A stretch of 32,000 nt of DNA from Methylorubrum extorquens (GCA_900234795.1 LT962688.1:1230001-1262000), one strand, 5' to 3'; shown: positions 10,760 to 20,488, numbered from the stretch's first letter. The notes: generated from the letters alone by a model not told the origin. Numbers and translations: made by a program.

Positions 10760-11425
10760 ATGCGCATCCTCGTCGTAGAAGACGAGCCGCGCATCGCGGC
10801 CGATATCAGCGAGGGTCTGGAGCGGGCCGGCTACGTCGCCGAGATCGTCGGCGACGGCGAGGCGGCGTGGTTCCGGGCCGAGACTGAGACCTACGACGCC
10901 ATGGTGCTCGACCTCGGCCTGCCGCGCCTCGACGGGCTGGGCGTGCTGCGCCGCCTGCGCGGGGCCGACGTCGCCCTGCCGGTGCTGATCCTCACCGCCC
11001 GCGACGGCTGGCGCGAGCGGGTCGAGGGGATCGACGCGGGCGCCGACGACTACCTCGTCAAGCCGTTCCGGATGGAGGAGCTGGTGGCACGGCTGCGCGC
11101 CATCCTGCGCCGCACCGCCGGCCACGCCTCCCCCGTCCTGCGGGCCGGCGCGGTCGAACTCGACACCCGCACCCGCGCGGTCTCGGTGGCAGGCCGCGAG
11201 ACCGACCTCACCGCGCTCGAATACCGCCTGCTCGCCTTCCTGCTCCACCGCCAGGGGCAGGTCGTGGCGGCGGGCGAGCTGCTCGACCATCTCCACGGCA
11301 GCGACAGCGACCGCGAGGCCAACGCGCTGGAGGCCCTGCTGACCCGGCTGCGGCGCAAGCTCGGCCCCGGCATCATCGAGACCCGCCGCGGCCACGGCTA
11401 CCTCGTGCCGTCCGATCCGCCGTGA
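10760..11425 (+). CDS. OmpR/PhoB-family response regulator (REC plus winged helix)
   Basis: MRILVVEDEPRIA...DAMVLDLGLPRLDG...DDYLVKPF...GAVELDTRTRAVSVAGRETDLTALEYRLLAFLL...ETRRGHGYLV. Confidence 0.95.
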   Translation: MRILVVEDEPRIAADISEGLERAGYVAEIVGDGEAAWFRAETETYDAMVLDLGLPRLDGLGVLRRLRGADVALPVLILTARDGWRERVEGIDAGADDYLVKPFRMEELVARLRAILRRTAGHASPVLRAGAVELDTRTRAVSVAGRETDLTALEYRLLAFLLHRQGQVVAAGELLDHLHGSDSDREANALEALLTRLRRKLGPGIIETRRGHGYLVPSDPP

Positions 11426-12768
11426 ACAGCGGCTCGCTGCGCCTGCGGCTCGGGCTCGCCGCCGCCGGGCTGATTGCCCTGGCGCTGGTGCTGGCCGGGA
11501 TCGGGCTGACGCTGATCTTCGACCGGGTGCTCGACGCTCGCACCGCCGACGGCCTCGACCGCACCGCCAAGCTCATCGCCGGGCAGGTCGCCCTGGCGCC
11601 GAACGGGGCTCCGACCCTGCCGCGCGAGCCGCCGGATTCACGTTTCTCGACGCCCTATGGCGGCCTCTACTGGCAAGTGGAGCGCGCCGGCGGCACCGCC
11701 CTGCGCTCGCGCTCGCTCTGGGACCGGAGCCTCGGCACGCTGCCCGACACGTCCGAGGAGCCGGCGGTCGGCGACCTCGCCGGACCGGATGGCGGCCGGC
11801 TCATCGCCGTAACCCGGCGGGTCTCGATTCCGGGCAACGGCGGCACGGTGGCGCTCACCGTCACGGTGGCCGAGGACCGCCGCGATCTCGCCCAGAGCCG
11901 CGCGACCTTCCTGCGCCTGCTGGTGCCCTCGCTCGGCGCGCTGTTCGCGGCGCTGACGCTCGCCATGTCGCTGTTCGTGCGCCGGGCGCTGGCGCCCTTC
12001 CGGACCCTGCGGGCGGATCTCGCCGCGATCCATGCCGGGACGCAGGCGCGGTTGCCCGACACCTTTCCCGAGGAGGTGCGCCCGTTGGTGGCCGACCTCA
12101 ACCGCCTGCTCGACGCGCAGGAGCGCGACCTGGAGCGGGCGCGCACGGGGGCGGGCGACATGGCCCACGGCCTCAAGACCCCGCTCGCGGTGCTCGACGC
12201 GCTGGCCCGCCGCACGGAAGCCGCCGACCCTGCGCTCGCGGCGGAGATCGCTGAGCAGGCGCACGCCATGGGCCGGCAGGTCGAGCGCACGCTCGCCCGG
12301 GCGCGGGCGGCCTCGGGGGGCCTGCGGCGGCGCGCCTGCCCGGTCGGACCGGCACTGGCGCGGATCGTCGGTGCACTGAAACGGCTCCCCGAGGGGGAAT
12401 CCCTGCGCTGGGAGATCGCAGTCCCGGAAAACCTCGCCTTTCCCGGCGACGAAGGCGACCTCACCGAGATCCTGGGCAACCTCCTCGACAACGCCCGCAA
12501 ATGGGCCCACCGCCGCATCCGCGTCTCGGGAGGCGCGGAGGGCGGCGAACACCGTCTGGTGCTGGAGGATGACGGCCCCGGCATGAGCGAGGCGGCGATC
12601 GCCGGCATCGCCCGCGGCCGGCGCTGGGACGAGACCCGGCCCGGCACCGGCTTCGGCATCGCCATCGCCCGCGACCTCGCGGAGGCTGTCGGCGCGCGGA
12701 TGCACCTCAGCCGCTCCGAACTCGGTGGCCTGCGGGTGGAGATGCGCTGGCCGGTTCCGGCGGCCTGA
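11422..12768 (+). CDS. Sensor histidine kinase, cognate to the preceding regulator
   Basis: GTG start overlaps the regulator stop (GTGA at 11422-11425). Two TM segments, H-box DMAHGLKTPLAVL, N-box LGNLLDNARKW, G-boxes EDDGPGM and GTGFGIAI. Confidence 0.92.
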   Translation: MNSGSLRLRLGLAAAGLIALALVLAGIGLTLIFDRVLDARTADGLDRTAKLIAGQVALAPNGAPTLPREPPDSRFSTPYGGLYWQVERAGGTALRSRSLWDRSLGTLPDTSEEPAVGDLAGPDGGRLIAVTRRVSIPGNGGTVALTVTVAEDRRDLAQSRATFLRLLVPSLGALFAALTLAMSLFVRRALAPFRTLRADLAAIHAGTQARLPDTFPEEVRPLVADLNRLLDAQERDLERARTGAGDMAHGLKTPLAVLDALARRTEAADPALAAEIAEQAHAMGRQVERTLARARAASGGLRRRACPVGPALARIVGALKRLPEGESLRWEIAVPENLAFPGDEGDLTEILGNLLDNARKWAHRRIRVSGGAEGGEHRLVLEDDGPGMSEAAIAGIARGRRWDETRPGTGFGIAIARDLAEAVGARMHLSRSELGGLRVEMRWPVPAA

Positions 12769-12790: not shown

Positions 12791-13177
12791 TCAGGCGGCC
12801 CGGCCGAGGGCGCCGAGCAGGTCGGAGCGGCCATAGGGCTTCGGCAGGAAGCCCGCATCGGGCAGGTCGTCGGCGCGCGGCCGGACCCGGCCCGAGGTGA
12901 CGACGAGGCGAATATGCGGCCAGCGCGCCCGCACCCGCGCCGCCAGCGTCAGCCCGTCCATCGAGCCCGGCATGTCGATGTCGGTGAACAGGGCGCCGAA
13001 GGCCTGGGCCTTCCCCTCCAGGAGTTGCAGGGCCGCGTCGGCGTCCGGCGCCTCGACCACCGGCAGGCCGGCATCCTCCAGCATGTCGACGGCCACCATG
13101 CGCACGAAACACTCATCCTCGACGACGAGGATGCGGGGGGCGGAGGACGGATCGGTCGGCTCGGACAGACAGGACAT
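12791..13177 (-). CDS. Stand-alone CheY-like receiver domain protein, divergent from kaiC
   Basis: Internal ATG (13177) of ORF 12791-13402: MSCLSEPTDPSSAPRILVVEDECFVRMVAVDMLEDAGLPVVEAPDADAAL...FTDIDMPGSMDG...LVVTSG...LPKPY. No output domain. Confidence 0.85.
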   Translation of the reverse strand: MSCLSEPTDPSSAPRILVVEDECFVRMVAVDMLEDAGLPVVEAPDADAALQLLEGKAQAFGALFTDIDMPGSMDGLTLAARVRARWPHIRLVVTSGRVRPRADDLPDAGFLPKPYGRSDLLGALGRAA

Positions 13178-13290
13178 GGGGGTCAAGCGAGCTGTAGCGG
13201 GTTGATGGGAAGCGGCTTTCCTCAAAGTGTCCGCGCGGCGATTGGTTTCAGCGGAGCCGCAGAAGATTCGAAGAAATATCGAACATAAAT

Positions 13291-13329
13291 CACGGCCCGG
13301 CGGGCCGGCCGGGCGCTCGCCGGGCCGTG
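13291..13329. other. Strong GC hairpin (12-bp perfect stem, 15-nt loop) in the REC/kaiC divergent spacer
   Basis: CACGGCCCGGCG (13291-13302) pairs with CGCCGGGCCGTG (13318-13329). It is flanked on the left by an AT-rich segment, attcgaagaaatatcgaacataaat. Confidence 0.5.
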
Positions 13330-13400
13330 TATTGCCACCCCCTGGCCTTTGCATTACGGGAGCCGGGAATCGGGTGCTCGAGGCCCGCCATGACACCTTC

Positions 13401-13604
13401 ATGACGACGCCCTTGCCTCACGACGCCTCCGCCCCCTCCCGTCGGCGCCTGCGACCGGCGCCGCTGCCGGCGCCCGCCCCCTTCCTCGTGTCCCGGCCGC
13501 AGCGCTCCCCCATGACGATCCTGCGCCTGGACAGCGGACCGGACGGGTTGCCCCCGATGACGGCCGGGGAAGAAATCGTCCTGGAGACCTGCCTTGGCGT
13601 CTGA
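13401..13604 (+). CDS. Possible small Pro-rich protein (up to 67 aa) overlapping the kaiC start by 11 nt
   Basis: Part of track ORF 13227-13604: [69 protein letters not shown]3 is about 90% from 13401 onward, against about 65% further upstream in the same frame. No good Shine-Dalgarno. Alternative ATGs at 13512 and 13557. Confidence 0.3.
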   Translation: MTTPLPHDASAPSRRRLRPAPLPAPAPFLVSRPQRSPMTILRLDSGPDGLPPMTAGEEIVLETCLGV

Positions 13605-15333
13605 ATCCGCGAGCCCGCCCCAAGACACTCCCAAGGGCACTCCCAAGGACGCTTCGAAGAGCGCTCCCGCACTCGCGAAGGTCGCCACCGGCATCGACGG
13701 CTTCGATACCATCACCTTCGGCGGCCTGCCGAAGGGGCGGCCCTCGCTGGTTTGCGGCGCGGCCGGCTGCGGCAAGACGCTGTTCGCCACCACCTTCCTC
13801 GTCAACGGCGCGACCCGCTTCGGCGAGCCCGGCGTGTTCATGAGCTTCGAGGAGCGCGCCGAGGATCTCGTCGCCAACGTCGCCTCCCTCGGCTACGACC
13901 TCGACGGGCTGGTGGCGCAGGGCAAGCTCGCCATCGACCACGTCCGCGTGGAGCGCAGCGAGATCGAGGAGACCGGCGAGTACGACCTCGAAGGGCTGTT
14001 CATCCGCCTCGGCTTCGCGGTGGATTCGATCGGCGCCAAGCGCATCGTGCTCGACACGATCGAGACCCTGTTCGCGGGCTTTTCCGACGAGACGGTGCTG
14101 CGGGCCGAACTCCGCCGCCTGTTCGGCTGGATCAAGGACCGGGGCCTGACCGCGATCATCACCGGCGAGCGCGGCGACGGCCAGCTCACCCGCCAGGGGA
14201 TGGAGGAATACGTCTCCGACTGCGTGGTGCTGCTCGACAACCGCGTCGAGGACCAGATCACGACGCGGCGCCTGCGCGTGGTGAAGTATCGCGGCTCGGC
14301 CCACGGCACCAACGAGTACCCGTTCCTGATCGATGCCGAGGGCATCAGCGTCCTGCCGGTCACCGCGGCCGACCTCGACTACACCATCGCCGAAGGCGTG
14401 GCCTCCACTGGCATCCCCGGCCTCGACGCGATGCTCGAACCCGGCGGCTTCCACCGGGGCACCAGCATCCTCGTGTCGGGCGAGTCCGGCACCGGCAAGA
14501 CCATGATCACGTCGAGCATGATCGCCGCGGCCTGCGCGCGCGGCGAGCGCTGCATGTCCTTCGTGTTCGAGGAGAGCGGCGACCAGATCATCCGCAACGC
14601 CCGCTCGATCGGCCTCGACCTCGCCCGCCATGTCGAGGCGGGCCTGCTGCGCTTCGAGGCGGCGCGTCCGAGCCTCTACGGCCTGGAAATGCACTTGGCA
14701 CGCATGCACCGGGACATCGACCGCTTCGCGCCCACCGTGGTGGTGGTCGATCCGCTCTCGGCCCTGCGCGGCCCGCCGGCCGAGCTTCAGGCGACGATGC
14801 TGCGCATGGTCGACATGCTGAAGAGCCGCGGCATCACCGCGGTGTTCACGAGCCTGCGCGAGGACGGCAGCCTCGACCACGACAGCAATATCGGCGTCTC
14901 CTCGCTGATGGATGCCTGGATCAAGCTCCTCAACATCGAGGCCAACGGCGAGCGCTCGCGCACGCTCTACGTCATCAAGGCCCGCGGCATGCGCCACTCG
15001 AACCAAGTGCGCGAGTTCAGCATGTCGGGCGACGGCATCGCCCTCGTCGAGGCCTATATCGGCCCGGCGGGCGTGCTGACGGGAACCGCCCGCGTCGTGC
15101 AGGAGGCGGAGGAAGCCGCCGCCGTCCTGCGCCGCGAGCAGGAGAGCCGCCGACGGCGGCGCGAGGCGGAACGGCGGCGCCAGTCGCTGGAGCGCCAGAT
15201 CGACGAACTGCGCGCCACCCTGGAAGCCGCGGCAGAGGAAGAGGCGGTGCTGTTGAGCGAGGACGAGATGCGCGAGGCGATGCTGACGAGCGAGCGGCGC
15301 ATCCTCTCCACCCGCCGGGGAGGCACGCGATGA
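13594..15333 (+). CDS. kaiC: Circadian-clock-family ATPase/autokinase KaiC (KaiA-independent type) with C-terminal coiled-coil extension
   Basis: 579 aa. The TTG start is the only start codon between the in-frame TGA (13558-13560) and the conserved N-terminus, with GGAGA about 8 nt upstream. Motifs: [32 protein letters not shown] (CI Walker A), [17 protein letters not shown]...[12 protein letters not shown] (CII Walker A), [19 protein letters not shown] (phospho-site Ser-Ser), [17 protein letters not shown], then about 75 aa of charged heptad-like sequence. Confidence 0.95.
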
Positions 15334-15737
15334 GCGGCTCCGAACCAACCGAGGACGGCCTCGACGCCGAAGCCGCCGGCCAAGTGAACGAGGGTACGGT
15401 GGACGAGGGTACGGTGGACGAGGGCCATTACCACCTGCGCCTCTACGTCGCCGGCCAGACCGCCAAGTCGCTGACGGCGATGGCCAACCTCAAGCGCTTC
15501 TGCGAGGAGCACCTCGCCGGCCATTACGACATCGAGGTCATCGACCTGATGAAGAATCCGCAGCTCGCGGCCGGCGACCAGATCCTGGCGATCCCGACCC
15601 TGGTGCGGCGCCTCCCCGCGCCGCTCAAGCGCATCATCGGCGACCTGTCCAACACCGAGAAGGTGCTGGTCGGCCTCGATATCCGGCCCCAGAGCCTCGC
15701 CGAGAAGAAGCCCACAGCGAAGGTGGACGGCATTTGA
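15330..15737 (+). CDS. kaiB: KaiB (thioredoxin-like fold-switch clock protein), paralogue 1, with acidic N-terminal extension
   Basis: ATGA overlap with the kaiC stop. GGGGAGG Shine-Dalgarno 6 nt upstream. [86 protein letters not shown] aligns by eye almost residue-for-residue with cyanobacterial KaiB. Confidence 0.92.
15388..15425 (+). repeat. In-frame 15-bp tandem repeat (about 2.5 copies of ACGAGGGTACGGTGG) encoding [13 protein letters not shown] in the KaiB1 N-terminal extension
   Basis: Exact copies at 15388-15402 and 15403-15417, with a partial third copy at 15418-15425. Confidence 0.85.
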
Positions 15738-16069
15738 GCGGCGGGGACATCACGGGCCACGGGGAGGCCGGGCACACCCGGCTGCGCCTCTACGTTGCCG
15801 GCACCTCGCCGCGCTCGACCCGCAGCATCGAGAGCGTGCGCCGCCTGTGCGAGCATCGGCTCGGGGGCGCGTGCGACCTCGAAGTGGTCGATATCTACCA
15901 GCAACCGGCGCTCGCGGGCGAAGACGGCGTGGTCGCGGCGCCGACCCTGGTGCGGCTCTCACCCCTTCCCGCCCGGCGCATCACCGGAGATCTGAGCGAC
16001 GAGCGGCATGTCCTCGACGGGCTTGGACTCGGCGGGCTCGGATTCGGCGGGGCCGCCGATGAGCACTGA
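15734..16069 (+). CDS. kaiB: KaiB paralogue 2 (divergent, Gly-rich C-terminal tail)
   Basis: TTG start overlaps the kaiB1 stop (TTGA at 15734-15737). AGGTGGA lies 6 nt upstream. [93 protein letters not shown] keeps the KaiB core motifs LYVAG, PTLV and GDLSD. Confidence 0.8.
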
Positions 16070-17822
16070 GCCCGACGCCACGGCTTTGGACGAGGCGCAA
16101 GCGCGCATCCGCACGCTGGAAGCGCGGCTGGAGGAGGTCGAGGACACCCTGGCGGCGATCCGCCGGGGCGATTTCGATGCGATCGTGGTCGAGGGTCCGA
16201 GCGGCGAGCGGCTGGTCTACACCCTGGAGAATGCCGACCGGCCCTACCGGGTGCTGATCGAGCAGATCCAGGAGGGCGCCTTCACCCTCGGGCCGGATGG
16301 AACGCTGCTCTACTGCAACCGCCGGCTCGCCGAGACCCTGGGCACTCCGCAGGAGCGCCTGATCGGCCAGCCCTTCGCGCGCTTCGCCGCCGGGGGCCAG
16401 GACGCGGCGCTCGCCGCCCTGATCACGCAGGCGGCGCGGATGCCGGCCCGCGGCGAGATCGCCCTGTGCGACGAGGCGGGGGTCGAGCGCCCCGCCTACC
16501 TGTCGCTGAACCGCCTCGACGGCGACGGCGACACCCTGCTCCTTTGCGGCGTGATCACCGACCTCACGGCGGAGCGGCTGCGCCTGCACGAACTCGCCGA
16601 GGCCAACGAGCGCCTGCGCGCCGAGGTGGCCGAGCGCGAGCGGATCGAGGAGGCGCTGCGCCAGAGCCAGAAGATGGAGGCGGTGGGCCAGCTCACCGGC
16701 GGCGTCGCGCACGACTTCAACAACCTGCTCACCGTCATCAAGTCCTCCACCGACCTGCTCAAGCGCCCCGATCTCGCCGAGGAGCGCCGCCGCCGCTATG
16801 TCGATGCCATCTCCGACACGGTGGCACGCGCGGCCAAGCTGACCGGCCAGCTCCTCGCCTTCGCCCGACGCCAAGCCTTGAAGCCCGAGGTGTTCGATGC
16901 CGGCCGCGGCGTCGCGTCGGTGGCCGACATGGTCGGCACGCTCACCGGCGCGCGCATCCAGGTGAAGACCTTGATCGAGCCCTGTTTCGACGCCGCGGGC
17001 GAGCCCTTCGCCTGCCTCGTGGAGGCCGATCCGAGCCAGTTCGACACAGCGCTGGTCAACATGGTCGTCAACGCCCGCGACGCCATGGACGGCGAGGGCA
17101 CGCTCACCATCCGCGTCGCCCATGCCGGGCAGATCCCGGCCCTGCGCACCCATCCGGCCGTGCCCGGCGACTTCGTGGCGGTGGCGATTTCCGACACGGG
17201 GACGGGCATCGCGCCGGCCGACCTGTCGCGGATCTTCGAGCCGTTCTTCACGACGAAGGGCGTCGGCCAGGGCACCGGGCTCGGGCTGTCCCAGGTGTTC
17301 GGCTTCGCCAAGCAGTCGGGCGGCGACATCGCGGTGGAGAGCGTGCTGGGACAGGGCACGACCTTCACCCTGTTCCTGCCGCGGGCCAAGGTCGCCCCGA
17401 CGATGGTCGAGTCCGCCGACGAGCCCGAGCCGCTGGCCCCCGGCCACGGCACCTGCGTGCTTCTCGTCGAGGACAACCGCGAGGTCGGCGCCTTCGCGAC
17501 GCAGGCGCTGGCCGAACTCGGCTACGGCACCGTCTGGGCGATGGATGCGGAGCAGGCGCTGGCCGAACTCGACCGGACGCCGGAGCGCTTCGACGTGGTG
17601 TTCACCGACGTGGTGATGCCCGGCATGAACGGCGTCGAACTCGCCCGCACGATCCTGGGGCGGACGCCCGGCATGCCGATCGTGCTCTCCTCCGGCTACA
17701 GCCACGTGCTGGCCGAGGACGGGCGCCACGGCTTCCCGCTGCTGCACAAGCCCTACTCGGTGGAGGATCTCTCGCGCATCCTGCGCCGGGCGATCCAGCG
17801 GCGCGCCGCGCGGGCGCGGTGA
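16059..17822 (+). CDS. Hybrid sensor histidine kinase (coiled coil, PAS, HisKA, HATPase_c, C-terminal REC) co-oriented with kaiCBB
   Basis: ATG 16059 lies 11 nt inside kaiB2; the longest ORF starts at 16008. PAS-like [34 protein letters not shown]-box [23 protein letters not shown]-box [11 protein letters not shown]-boxes DTGTGI and [21 protein letters not shown]...[12 protein letters not shown]...LLHKPY. Confidence 0.9.
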
Positions 17823-17864: not shown

Positions 17865-17888
17865 AAGGCTCGGATTGCTCCGAGCCTT
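17865..17888 (-). terminator. Rho-independent terminator between the convergent kinase and Sua5 genes, best on the minus strand
   Basis: AAGGCTCGGA-ttgc-TCCGAGCCTT is a perfect 10-bp stem. On the minus strand it is followed by TTTTTCC. A second hairpin, GGCCTTCG (17918-17925) pairing with CGAAGGCC (17942-17949), lies between it and the Sua5 stop. Confidence 0.6.
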
Positions 17889-17991: not shown

Positions 17992-18981
17992 TCAGCGCGG
18001 CGCCGCAGCCCGGCGCAGGCGGTCGTTGATCGCCTCGCCCAGCCCCTCCTCCGGCACCGGGACGACAGCGATGGTCGGTGCGCCCGAGGCGTCGAGCCGG
18101 CGCAGGGCCCCGAACAGCCGCGCGGCGGCCTCCGCCGGATCGCCGCGCTCGCTTAAGGATTCGACCGCCGCCGCACGGTCCAGCCCAGCGGGGCGGAAGG
18201 CGCCGAACAGCAGAACCGCCTCATTCGGCTCGATGGTCCTGACCTCGAGCCGCACCCCGGCCCGCGGGGCGTAGTGCGAGGCGAGCAGGCCGGGACCCAC
18301 GGGCCGCGAGCCCGGATCGCCGGCCGCTTCGGGAGCAAAGCCCAGCACGGCAGCGAGGGCCTCCCGCGTCACCCCGCCGGGGCGCAGCAGCCGGGGCGGG
18401 CCACCGAGACAGGCGACCACGGTGGATTCGACACCGACCGGGCATTCGCCCCCGTCGAGCACCGCCGCGATGCGCCCGTCGAGATCGGTCAGCACATGGT
18501 CGGCGCTGGTGGGGCTCACCCGTCCGGAACGGTTGGCCGAGGGCGCCGCCACCGGTCGCCCGACCCGTTCCAGCAGCGCGCGGGCGATGTCGTGGGCCGG
18601 CACGCGGAGCGCCACGGAGTCGAGCCCGGCCCGAGCGAGATCGCAGACCGAGCCGCCGGGTGCCGCCGGCACCACCAGGGTCAGCGGCCCCGGCCAGAAT
18701 TTTTTCGCGAGGCGGAGGGCGGCTTCGTCGAACACGCCCTCGGCCAACGCAGCCTCGGGCGTCGCGACATGGGCGATCAGCGGGTTGAAGCGCGGGCGGC
18801 CCTTGGCGGCATAGATCGCGGCCACCGCCTCCGGGTCGGTGGCGTCGGCCCCGAGCCCGTAGACCGTCTCGGTCGGCAGGGCGACGAGGCGCCCCGCCCG
18901 GAGCAGGGCGGCCGCCCGCGCGAGGCCGTCCGCGTCGGCCGCCAGGCGCAGCGTGGGGATGGTTGACGGTACGGCGTCCAT
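17992..18981 (-). CDS. L-threonylcarbamoyladenylate synthase (Sua5/YrdC/TsaC family, with Sua5 C-terminal domain)
   Basis: MDAVPSTIPTLRLAADADGLARAAALLRAGRLVALPTETVYGLGADATDPEAVAAIYAAKGRPRFNPLIAHV.... Start chosen at 18981, 35 aa before PTETVYGL as in known family members. The longest ORF reaches 19092. Confidence 0.85.
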   Translation of the reverse strand: MDAVPSTIPTLRLAADADGLARAAALLRAGRLVALPTETVYGLGADATDPEAVAAIYAAKGRPRFNPLIAHVATPEAALAEGVFDEAALRLAKKFWPGPLTLVVPAAPGGSVCDLARAGLDSVALRVPAHDIARALLERVGRPVAAPSANRSGRVSPTSADHVLTDLDGRIAAVLDGGECPVGVESTVVACLGGPPRLLRPGGVTREALAAVLGFAPEAAGDPGSRPVGPGLLASHYAPRAGVRLEVRTIEPNEAVLLFGAFRPAGLDRAAAVESLSERGDPAEAAARLFGALRRLDASGAPTIAVVPVPEEGLGEAINDRLRRAAAPR

Positions 18982-19090
18982 ATCGGAGTGGATGCGAGGA
19001 AGAACGGCCGGCCGTAGACCCTTCAGCCGCAAGCCGTCAAACGGGATCGCCGCCCCCTCGACGCGCGGCGGGAGGAGCGGTGTACCGGTC

Positions 19091-20488
19091 ATGAGCTATC
19101 GCGCGCCCGTCGAGGAGATGGCCTTCACCCTCCGCCACGTCGCGGGGCTCGACGCCGTGCTGGCGCAGAGCGGGGCCGAGATCGGCCCGGACGATGCGGT
19201 CGCCATCCTCGAAGAGGCGGGCCGGCTCGCCGGCAACGTCATCGCCCCGCTCAACCGGGTCGGCGACCGCCACGGTACGCCGTTCTCGGACGGCCGCGTC
19301 ACCACCGCGCCGGGCTGGGCGTCAGCCTACCGCGCCTTCGTCGAGGGCGGCTGGAACGGCGTGCTCGCCGCGCCCGATTACGGGGGGCAGGGCCTGCCGC
19401 ATCTGATCGCCGCCGCCTGCACCGAGATGTGGAACGGGGCCAACCTCGCCTTCGGCCTGTGCCCGCTGCTGACCGCCGGCGGCGTCGAGGCGCTGGCCGC
19501 CCACGGCTCCGACGAACTGAAGGGCCGCTATCTCGAAAAGCTCGTCTCGGGCGAGTGGACCGCGACCATGAACCTGACCGAGCCGCAGGCGGGCTCGGAC
19601 CTTTCGGCTCTGCGCACCCGCGCCGAGGCCCAGGGCGACGGCAGCTACCGGATCACCGGCGCCAAGATCTACATCACCTATGGCGAGCACGACCTTGCCG
19701 ACAACATCTGCCACCTCGTGCTCGCCCGCCTCAAGGACGCGCCGGCCGGTACCCGCGGCATCTCGCTGTTCCTCGTGCCGAAGGTGCTGCCGGACGGGAG
19801 CCGCAACGACCTGCGGTGTTCGGGCATCGAGCACAAGCTCGGCATCCACGCCTCGCCGACCTGCTCCATGGCCTTCGGCGACGCGGGCGGCGCGACCGGC
19901 TGGCTGATCGGCGAGGAGAACCGGGGGTTGGCCTGCATGTTCACGATGATGAACTCGGCCCGGCTCAATGTCGGGCTGCAGGGCGTGGGCGTGGCGGAAG
20001 CCGCGTATCAGAAGGCCCTCGACTACGCCCGCGAGCGCCGCCAGGGCCGGGCGCCGGGCTCGCCCGAGCCGGTCAGCGCCATCGTGGCGCATGCCGACAT
20101 CCAGCGCACGCTGCTGACCATGAAGGCCTACACGGCGGCGTCCCGCGGCATCTGCTACCTCACCGCCCAAGGTCTCGACGCCGCTGATGGACCCGAGGGA
20201 AAGGCGGCGCATGACCGCGCCTCGCTGCTGACGCCGGTGGCCAAAGCCTTCTCCACCGACATCGCCAACGAGGTGACCTCGCTCGGCGTTCAGGTCCATG
20301 GCGGCATGGGCTTCGTCGAGGAGACGGGGGCGGCCCAGCTCATGCGCGATGCCCGCATCCTCGGTATCTACGAGGGCACCAACGGCATCCAGGCGATCGA
20401 CCTCGTCACCCGCAAGCTGCCGCTGAACGGCGGCGCCACGGTCGGCGCGCAGATCGCGTCGATGCGGCGGGTGGCGGAGGGCTCTTGA
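19091..20488 (+). CDS. Acyl-CoA dehydrogenase (long-form family), N-terminal, middle and catalytic domains; reading frame ends prematurely
   Basis: MSYRAPVEEMAFTLRHV...GGWNGVLAAPDYGGQGLP...TATMNLTEPQAGSDLSALRTRAE...GAKIYITYGEHDL...IHASPTCSMAFG...QVHGGMGFVEETGAAQLMRDARILGIYEGTNGIQAIDLVTRK. The stop at 20486-20488 comes before the expected C-terminal domain. Confidence 0.9.
   Translation: MSYRAPVEEMAFTLRHVAGLDAVLAQSGAEIGPDDAVAILEEAGRLAGNVIAPLNRVGDRHGTPFSDGRVTTAPGWASAYRAFVEGGWNGVLAAPDYGGQGLPHLIAAACTEMWNGANLAFGLCPLLTAGGVEALAAHGSDELKGRYLEKLVSGEWTATMNLTEPQAGSDLSALRTRAEAQGDGSYRITGAKIYITYGEHDLADNICHLVLARLKDAPAGTRGISLFLVPKVLPDGSRNDLRCSGIEHKLGIHASPTCSMAFGDAGGATGWLIGEENRGLACMFTMMNSARLNVGLQGVGVAEAAYQKALDYARERRQGRAPGSPEPVSAIVAHADIQRTLLTMKAYTAASRGICYLTAQGLDAADGPEGKAAHDRASLLTPVAKAFSTDIANEVTSLGVQVHGGMGFVEETGAAQLMRDARILGIYEGTNGIQAIDLVTRKLPLNGGATVGAQIASMRRVAEGS

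Follow-up and report, generated by a model that had tools for sequence, protein, structure and literature searches.

Two ancient KaiB paralogues in a KaiA-less kai operon of Methylorubrum extorquens, the second predicted to be fold-locked

Why would a kai operon with no kaiA near it encode two different KaiB proteins beside a single KaiC? The question is raised by a stretch of 32,000 nucleotides (nt) from Methylorubrum extorquens (GCA_900234795.1 LT962688.1:1230001-1262000; the whole of it is called the window here, and positions are counted from its first letter), in which positions 12,791 to 17,822 carry kaiC, kaiB1, kaiB2, and a hybrid histidine kinase gene in a row, with a receiver gene pointing away from them. 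Judging from their sequences, the two KaiBs are ancient, distinct paralogues that have been kept together in most relatives, and the two-kaiB layout is the usual form of a widespread KaiA-less system rather than a rarity. With moderate confidence, the operon can be read as a KaiC2-type, KaiA-independent timer or stress switch in which KaiB1 would be a slow fold-switcher, KaiB2 would be locked in one fold, and the PAS kinase would read the resulting state.

The kaiC gene (13594-15333, plus strand, TTG start; Pfam KaiC twice, PF06745, E 4e-107) encodes a protein of the KaiC2/Rhodobacter sphaeroides type with a C-terminal coiled-coil extension. It is followed on the same strand by kaiB1 (15330-15737; Pfam KaiB, PF07689, E 1.4e-25), which encodes the position-1 paralogue (p1), by kaiB2 (15734-16069, TTG start; Pfam KaiB, E 9.1e-22), which encodes the position-2 paralogue (p2), and by the gene for the Kai-associated hybrid histidine kinase (16059-17822, with an alternative start at 16008; Pfam PAS_4, HisKA, HATPase_c, and Response_reg). 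E-values this low exclude chance domain matches. KaiB1 and KaiB2 score 89.2 and 77.0 bits against the Pfam KaiB cutoff of 27, and both fall under the cutoff of 110 bits set for the NCBIfam KaiB equivalog. Direct reading of the sequence shows how tightly the genes are joined: ATGA at 15330-15333 links kaiC to kaiB1, TTGA at 15734-15737 links kaiB1 to kaiB2, and the kinase ATG at 16059 precedes the kaiB2 stop codon (TGA, 16067-16069), giving overlaps of 4, 4, and 11 nt along the operon. Starting the kinase at the in-frame ATG at 16008 would lengthen the last overlap to 62 nt; NCBI gene calls on the sequence-identical record CP021054.1 agree with the genes given here and place that start at 16059. 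A first-pass annotation, made from the sequence alone, had drawn the same open reading frames (ORFs) and coordinates, all of which are present. The overlapping start and stop codons that it placed at 15330, 15734, and 16059 were confirmed to the base, as were the gene order and domains of the KaiA-less operon that it described: no KaiA-domain gene occurs among the genes called over approximately 9.3 to 21.7 kb of the window, and the window holds no second kaiC or additional kaiB.

The 4-, 4-, and 11-nt overlaps and the synteny are kept in two Methylorubrum/Methylobacterium relatives, and the closest protein homologues, 93-96% identical, come from Methylobacterium sp. Leaf123 and Methylorubrum species. 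Against the two relatives, the ratio of nonsynonymous to synonymous substitution rates (dN/dS) is 0.13-0.27 for KaiC, 0.12-0.46 for KaiB1, 0.21-0.50 for KaiB2, 0.07-0.14 for the kinase, and 0.21-0.29 for the receiver. With values confined to 0.07-0.50, all five genes are taken to be coding and under purifying selection.

How common is a tandem kaiB? The first-pass annotation had held that two KaiBs in one operon do not match the architecture of characterized systems, and it proposed a survey of genome databases. One genome per species was scanned, and the best 80 of at least 560 kaiC relatives, 54-80% identical to the window KaiC, were translated in all frames and searched with the window proteins. 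Exactly two KaiB ORFs directly follow kaiC in 68 of these 80 loci, or in 68 of 77 when three loci cut by a contig end are excluded. Among the other 12 loci, which include the 3 that are cut, 11 have one KaiB ORF and 1 has none. The kinase comes next in nearly all of the complete loci. The sample covers at least eight phyla and one archaeon, and the two-kaiB form is found in Methylobacterium, Acetobacteraceae, other Alphaproteobacteria, Beta- and Gammaproteobacteria (a Pseudomonas among them), Bacteroidota, Acidobacteriota, Planctomycetota, Methylomirabilota, and a Methanoperedens archaeon. A Pararhizobium plasmid also has it, annotated as “kaiB,” “KaiB family protein,” and “response regulator.”

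The arrangement is also not new to the species. In M. extorquens AM1, a review of methylotroph physiology (PMC8069551) that summarizes Iguchi et al. 2018 names two clusters, kaiC1-kaiB2-kaiB1-kaiR1 and kaiC2-kaiR2. The window operon resembles the first of these, as summarized there, in its genus group and in having kaiC followed by two kaiB genes and then a regulator; the Ser-Ser pair at 436/437 in the window KaiC is reported at 432/433 in AM1 KaiC1. By its layout and its near-identical relatives, the window operon is orthologous in layout to the kaiC1 cluster. According to the same summary, an AM1 kaiC1 deletion is UV sensitive and KaiC1 is a positive regulator of temperature-dependent UV resistance; that summary gives phenotypes for kaiC and labA only and ascribes no role to either KaiB or to kaiR1. 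The claim of an unfamiliar architecture thus fails, because the layout is common among relatives and had already been named in AM1. The accompanying point, that the characterized systems differ, holds: R. sphaeroides KD131 and Rhodopseudomonas palustris each have a single kaiB. The survey, then, showed tandem kaiB to be common but not already characterized. Beyond the AM1 cluster name, the searched literature, from which the primary AM1 paper fell outside, yielded no account of tandem or paralogous kaiB genes in such operons. Undescribed there are the second KaiB as an ancient, predicted fold-locked paralogue and the predominance of two-kaiB loci among relatives.

Are the two KaiBs old or recent copies of one another? 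In a tree of 69 position-1 and 69 position-2 sequences, 62 of the 69 position-2 sequences, the window KaiB2 among them, form one clade without any position-1 sequence, and the window KaiB1 groups with p1. On average, p1 sequences are 66% identical to one another, p2 sequences 50%, and p1 to p2 sequences 46%; the window pair are 44% identical. The duplication is therefore older than the spread of the operon across phyla. Column by column, some residues are conserved in one paralogue only, while the three fold-switch prolines and core residues are common to both. Over 117 sequences, the p2 family keeps 7 columns invariant and 22 nearly so, and its distances follow those of KaiC after controlling for p1 (mirror-tree partial r 0.46). 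To which of the two does the KaiB of R. sphaeroides (KaiB-RS) correspond? It is p1-like, both in identity (62% versus 49%) and in profile score (128 versus 116 bits for the p1 and p2 profiles), and by sequence KaiB1 is of the orthologous type to this fold-switching protein. The best Protein Data Bank (PDB) match of KaiB1 is 8fwj_M, against which KaiB2 scores 81.6 bits.

The KaiC in the window points to the same known system. Its best PDB match is R. sphaeroides KaiC (8dba/8fwi), with an E-value of 9.5e-203 and residues 26-577 aligned, C-terminal tail included, which supports the kinship with the hourglass systems of purple bacteria put forward in the first-pass annotation; matches to cyanobacterial KaiC are much weaker, at approximately 1e-94. 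With the NCBIfam model NF006799, the window KaiC reaches 743 bits, where the cutoff is 408. Walker A motifs begin at residues 55 (GAAGCGKT) and 296 (GESGTGKT), FEE motifs begin at 85 and 325, and the catalytic EE pairs are at 86-87 and 326-327. The predicted phosphosites, Ser436-Ser437, align with Ser413-Ser414 of R. sphaeroides KaiC and are Ser-Ser rather than Ser-Thr. The tail, residues 496-579, is charged and heptad-like and aligns at the sequence level with 8dba up to residue 577. A double RecA-like KaiC, a kaiB directly 3' of it, a PAS histidine kinase next, and no KaiA near the locus together place the operon with the KaiC2-type systems.

Several of these systems have been studied. The hourglass of R. 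sphaeroides (Cereibacter) KD131 (Pitsawong et al. 2023, PMC10076222; 8dba, 8fwi, 8fwj) belongs to the same KaiC subgroup and shares with the window a coiled-coil tail of approximately 50 amino acids (aa), Ser-Ser sites, the lack of KaiA, and the order kaiC-kaiB-kinase with a homologous helix and PAS domain; its KaiB is of the same paralogue type as KaiB1. It differs in having one kaiB (WP_002725098) where the Methylorubrum window has two, in a kinase transmitter of the HWE type where the window has a CckA-like HisKA-HATPase-REC, and in being plasmid borne, while the window lies on a 5.6-Mb record. [quoted passage not shown] By homology, we infer that this mechanism of tail, KaiB, and ATP/ADP ratio carries over to the Methylorubrum locus. 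A “kaiC-B-PAS/HK operon” has been described in both R. palustris and R. sphaeroides (Ma et al. 2016, PMC4794148). By that published description, R. palustris likewise has a KaiA-less kaiC-kaiB-PAS kinase operon, which is of the hourglass type and confers kaiC-dependent fitness in light/dark cycles (PMC4794148), though this organism is a phototroph with a single kaiB.

What, then, distinguishes KaiB2 from KaiB1? The triple substitution I68R/V83D/N84R raises the fold-switched state of KaiB-RS from 11% to 86%, and V83D alone is predicted to turn its C-terminal strand into a helix (PMC10808063). The V83-equivalent is Val in 66 of 69 p1 loci and in 113 of 116 database homologues, window KaiB1 included. 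In p2 it is Ala, Arg, Lys, Asp, or others and is hydrophobic in only 13 of 69; the window KaiB2 carries an Asp there, Asp95. Similarly, the I68-equivalent is always Leu, Ile, Val, or Met in p1, while in p2 it is Glu in 15 of 69 and polar in many. The AlphaFold2 model of KaiB2, built on 117 p2 sequences, has a mean pLDDT (predicted score in the local distance difference test) of 82, with a core above 90, and the order strand-helix-strand-helix-strand-strand-helix, which is the thioredoxin-like, fold-switched topology. Foldseek matches it to Legionella KaiB (4kun), to KaiC-bound KaiB-RS (8fwj), to the fold-switch-stabilized KaiBs 5jyt, 5jwo, and 5jwr, to the SasA N-terminal domain (6x61, 1t4y), and to KaiB-TV4 (8ubh); no ground-state KaiB is among the 50 matches listed. 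The KaiB1 model, built on 116 p1 sequences, is of low confidence (pLDDT 53) and has a ground-state-like helix-helix-strand C-terminal half. It matches the ground-state tetramers 1wwj, 2qke, 4kso, 1vgl, and 1r5p, and fold-switched structures align to it over the invariant N-terminal half only.

Profile searches of the PDB run in the same direction. The p2 profile scores higher than the p1 profile on Legionella KaiB 4kun (98.6 versus 76.3 bits) and on KaiB-TV4 8ubh (81 versus 65 bits), both of them KaiB homologues whose free forms were solved in the fold-switched state. The N-terminal domain of SasA is matched by the p2 profile only, at 33 bits, and the NCBIfam SasA model gives 27.6 bits for KaiB2 and 17.3 bits for KaiB1. 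As modeled, KaiB2 shares its thioredoxin-like fold with the cyanobacterial SasA N-domain, with Legionella Lpp1115 (4kun), and with KaiB-TV4 (8ubh). Unlike SasA, which is fused to a HisKA kinase, KaiB2 is a separate, free-standing ORF and is far closer to KaiB in sequence; unlike all three, it co-occurs with a KaiB-RS-type KaiB in one operon. From these models we infer that KaiB2 would stay permanently in the thioredoxin-like, KaiC-binding fold.

The last gene of the operon encodes a kinase with an N-terminal helix, a PAS domain, HisKA, HATPase, and a receiver (REC); the H-box histidine, His218, and the REC acceptor Asp are present, and the transmitter and REC are CckA-like by NCBIfam. Only the N-terminal helix and first PAS domain are conserved across the clade. 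Across the 68 two-kaiB loci, similarity to the window kinase always sets in within its first 40 residues and no more than 200 nt after the second kaiB, and this N-terminal region is 33% identical to the Kai-linked HWE kinase of R. sphaeroides (E 2e-13). The rest varies, with one to several PAS domains followed by HisKA-HATPase with or without REC, or by an HWE kinase. In Pseudomonas systems that lack KaiB, the kinase PAS domain binds KaiC directly (10.1101/2022.01.26.477890).

How might these parts work together? The coiled-coil tail would keep the KaiC kinase constitutively active, by analogy with R. sphaeroides, and KaiB would bind the CI ring in its ADP-bound state and, at a falling ATP/ADP ratio, hasten both ATP hydrolysis and dephosphorylation. 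The slow, fold-switching regulator would be KaiB1; KaiB-RS needs hours to interconvert and has a temperature-sensitive ground state (PMC11185700). KaiB2 would have no ground state, only the permanently KaiC-binding fold, and, being locked, would occupy CI sites without the hours-long delay of a fold switch. It could thus be a fast or constitutive arm that competes with KaiB1 or primes it, as the SasA N-domain does in cyanobacteria. KaiB-KaiB contacts in the R. sphaeroides ring cover approximately 45 square angstroms (PMC10076222); with contacts this small, mixed occupancy of the CI sites by KaiB1 and KaiB2 is plausible. The kinase N-terminal helix and PAS domain would read the KaiC/KaiB state, and the signal would leave through the lineage-variable transmitter, which in the window is the CckA-like HisKA-HATPase-REC.

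Several points weigh against this account. The locked fold of KaiB2 rests on predictions, and the p1 sequences form a shallow alignment (mean column identity 63%) and yield a low-confidence model; some of the difference between the KaiB1 and KaiB2 models may therefore come from the depth of the alignments. The greater diversity of the p2 profile relative to that of p1 in itself raises sensitivity to the SasA N-domain. Gly88 (Synechococcus elongatus numbering) is still Gly in 83% of p2 sequences, and mutation of Gly88 to Ala stabilizes the fold-switched state of cyanobacterial KaiB. As for coupling to the kinase, no covariation of p2 with the kinase beyond that with KaiC was seen in a mirror-tree test that is itself weak (partial r 0.06, p 0.19), and single-kaiB systems keep the same PAS kinase, which indicates that p2 is dispensable for the coupling. 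That the four genes, kaiC to kinase, form a single transcript is deduced from their overlaps. Calls of KaiB fold state by AlphaFold2 have also been disputed in general, on grounds of memorization and of clustering (PMC10836070, PMC11344769).

Could the contrast between the models simply be an artifact? Both KaiBs might switch folds and drive KaiC dephosphorylation, differing only in affinity, temperature optimum, or expression. The locus would then be an ordinary copy of a known system, and the shared core residues and prolines, the scores of both proteins above the Pfam threshold, the Gly88 kept in most p2 sequences, and the contested standing of AlphaFold2 state calls all fit such a picture. 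Yet the hydrophobic V83- and I68-equivalents have been lost across the clade in p2 only, the p2 profile scores higher on proteins solved fold-switched when free, and the paralogues have stayed separate across phyla, so that equivalence of the two seems doubtful. More extreme is the idea that KaiB2 is a decaying or nonfunctional duplicate carried along in the operon. It has indeed evolved faster than KaiB1, as the mean identities within p2 and p1 show, has the highest dN/dS of the five genes, and ends in a variable, repeat-encoded C-terminal tail. Its dN/dS does not exceed 0.50, though, and a gene that 68 of the 80 loci, across phyla, keep in one place, with its invariant and near-invariant columns and a confident, well-folded model, is very improbable as a relic.

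A different role for a KaiB2 in the thioredoxin-like fold would be that of an adaptor, in effect a SasA split in two, that tethers the PAS kinase to the KaiC CI ring, with the 11-nt overlap ensuring 1:1 synthesis. KaiB2 is always directly 5' of the kinase, the overlap is kept in relatives, and its model matches the SasA N-domain structures; that domain is found by the p2 profile and missed by the p1 profile, and the SasA model of NCBIfam prefers KaiB2 to KaiB1. This proposal nonetheless appears unlikely, for KaiB2 is fused to the kinase in none of the 80 loci, the covariation test described above shows nothing between p2 and the kinase past their shared history, R. sphaeroides pairs a homologous PAS N terminus with KaiC without any p2, and the PAS domain of the KaiB-less Pseudomonas systems needs no KaiB to bind KaiC. 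KaiB2 as a fold-locked partner of a switching KaiB1 is the reading with the best support.

What would follow if it were true? More tentatively, most KaiC2-type systems outside the cyanobacteria may be three-protein machines, composed of KaiC, a slow, switching KaiB, and a fold-locked KaiB that binds CI instantly. The locked KaiB would be a fast, possibly temperature-insensitive arm that primes the metamorphic KaiB or competes with it, and the ratio in which the two occupy the KaiC ring would set the timing or temperature response read by the PAS kinase. Such a machine would be a natural, free-standing counterpart of the cyanobacterial succession of SasA and then KaiB, and it could underlie the KaiC1-controlled, temperature-dependent UV resistance in Methylorubrum. 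Mechanistic models of KaiA-less Kai timers have all been built on single-kaiB systems, while the two-kaiB form is the majority among close KaiC relatives. A naturally fold-locked KaiB2 would make the operon a built-in comparison of a switching and a nonswitching KaiB on one KaiC, and the contribution of the fold switch to timing would become directly testable in a genetically tractable methylotroph with a kaiC1 phenotype.

The survey also turned up variations on the two-kaiB theme. One of the sampled loci, in Pseudomonas sp. 286 (L035), is a complete kaiC-kaiB-kaiB-hybrid kinase operon; in a preprint's survey of 1255 complete genomes of Pseudomonas, no KaiB homologue was reported for this genus. 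KaiB-KaiB fusion proteins (P0126, P0128-P0131, and P0019) were considered as a sign that the two KaiBs form one functional unit, and this was rejected. The contigs that encode P0128 and P0130 (L085 and L086) carry kaiC in two or three pieces and a truncated kinase, two other fused sequences have scrambled, frameshift-like junctions, and the fusions are most likely sequencing or frameshift artifacts. In 11 of the 80 loci (L001, L002, L007, L013, L014, L024, L026, L029, L030, L034, and L036), and on the Pararhizobium plasmid (L088, 4271-4459), a small ribbon-helix-helix gene (YlcI/YnfO-like) lies directly 5' of kaiC. It may be a transcriptional regulator of the kai operon in those loci and is absent from the Methylorubrum window.

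In the window, the stand-alone receiver (12791-13177, minus strand, 128 aa; Pfam Response_reg, E 8e-15) lies upstream of kaiC. It retains the full Asp/Asp/Thr/Lys catalytic set, shares 38% identity with the REC of the hybrid kinase, and finds its best NCBIfam matches in CckA-type receivers and CpdR. Is it the output of the Kai module, as the first-pass annotation had suggested? Outside a narrow lineage that suggestion finds no support: none of the 80 related loci was seen to have this stand-alone REC upstream of kaiC, its synteny is limited to close Methylorubrum relatives, and the receiver was rejected as a conserved Kai partner. On its other side are genes for an OmpR-type regulator (10760-11425, plus strand) and a PhoQ/HAMP-type kinase (11422-12768, plus strand), which overlap by 4 nt, and the stop codon of the PhoQ-type kinase lies 22 nt from that of the convergent receiver. 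With the receiver equally adjacent to this pair, its part in Kai output is speculation, and it could belong to the OmpR/PhoQ-type system instead. A PepSY-domain gene lies just upstream of the pair in public gene calls.

Between the receiver and kaiC is a divergent intergenic region of 416 base pairs (bp) (13178-13593), the presumed kaiC promoter region. Scans of this leader found no match to the sigma-70 consensus and no Rfam family, and a regulatory RNA or sigma-70 promoter there was rejected. NCBI calls a 76-aa ORF at 13374-13604 (plus strand) that overlaps the kaiC start by 11 nt. It matches no Pfam or NCBIfam family and lacks homologues upstream of kaiC across the 80 related loci; with a dN/dS of 0.94 against Leaf123, it is probably a spurious call in GC-rich DNA rather than a gene.

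At the other end, the kinase gene faces a convergent gene for a Sua5/TsaC threonylcarbamoyl-AMP synthase, with features at 17992-19092 (minus strand) and 18953-20488 (plus strand). Between the two convergent genes lies a GC-rich, terminator-like hairpin (17865-17888) of 10 pairs, with a run of T on the minus strand, at which transcription of Sua5 probably stops. Beyond lie genes for an acyl-CoA dehydrogenase, a TetR regulator, and an RND efflux adaptor, a flank that is syntenic in Methylorubrum relatives and has no evident tie to Kai.

Finally, two 15-bp tandem repeats lie within the operon itself. The first, at 15384-15424, encodes part of the KaiB1 N-terminal tail; a Methylorubrum multispecies protein 93% identical to KaiB1 has one unit fewer. 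The second, at 16013-16051, encodes the Gly/Leu-rich C-terminal tail of KaiB2 and, in another frame, the stretch between the two candidate kinase starts. The KaiB2 tail varies in length among relatives (111 versus 129-134 aa for the protein), yet the 11-nt overlap with the kinase gene stays constant.

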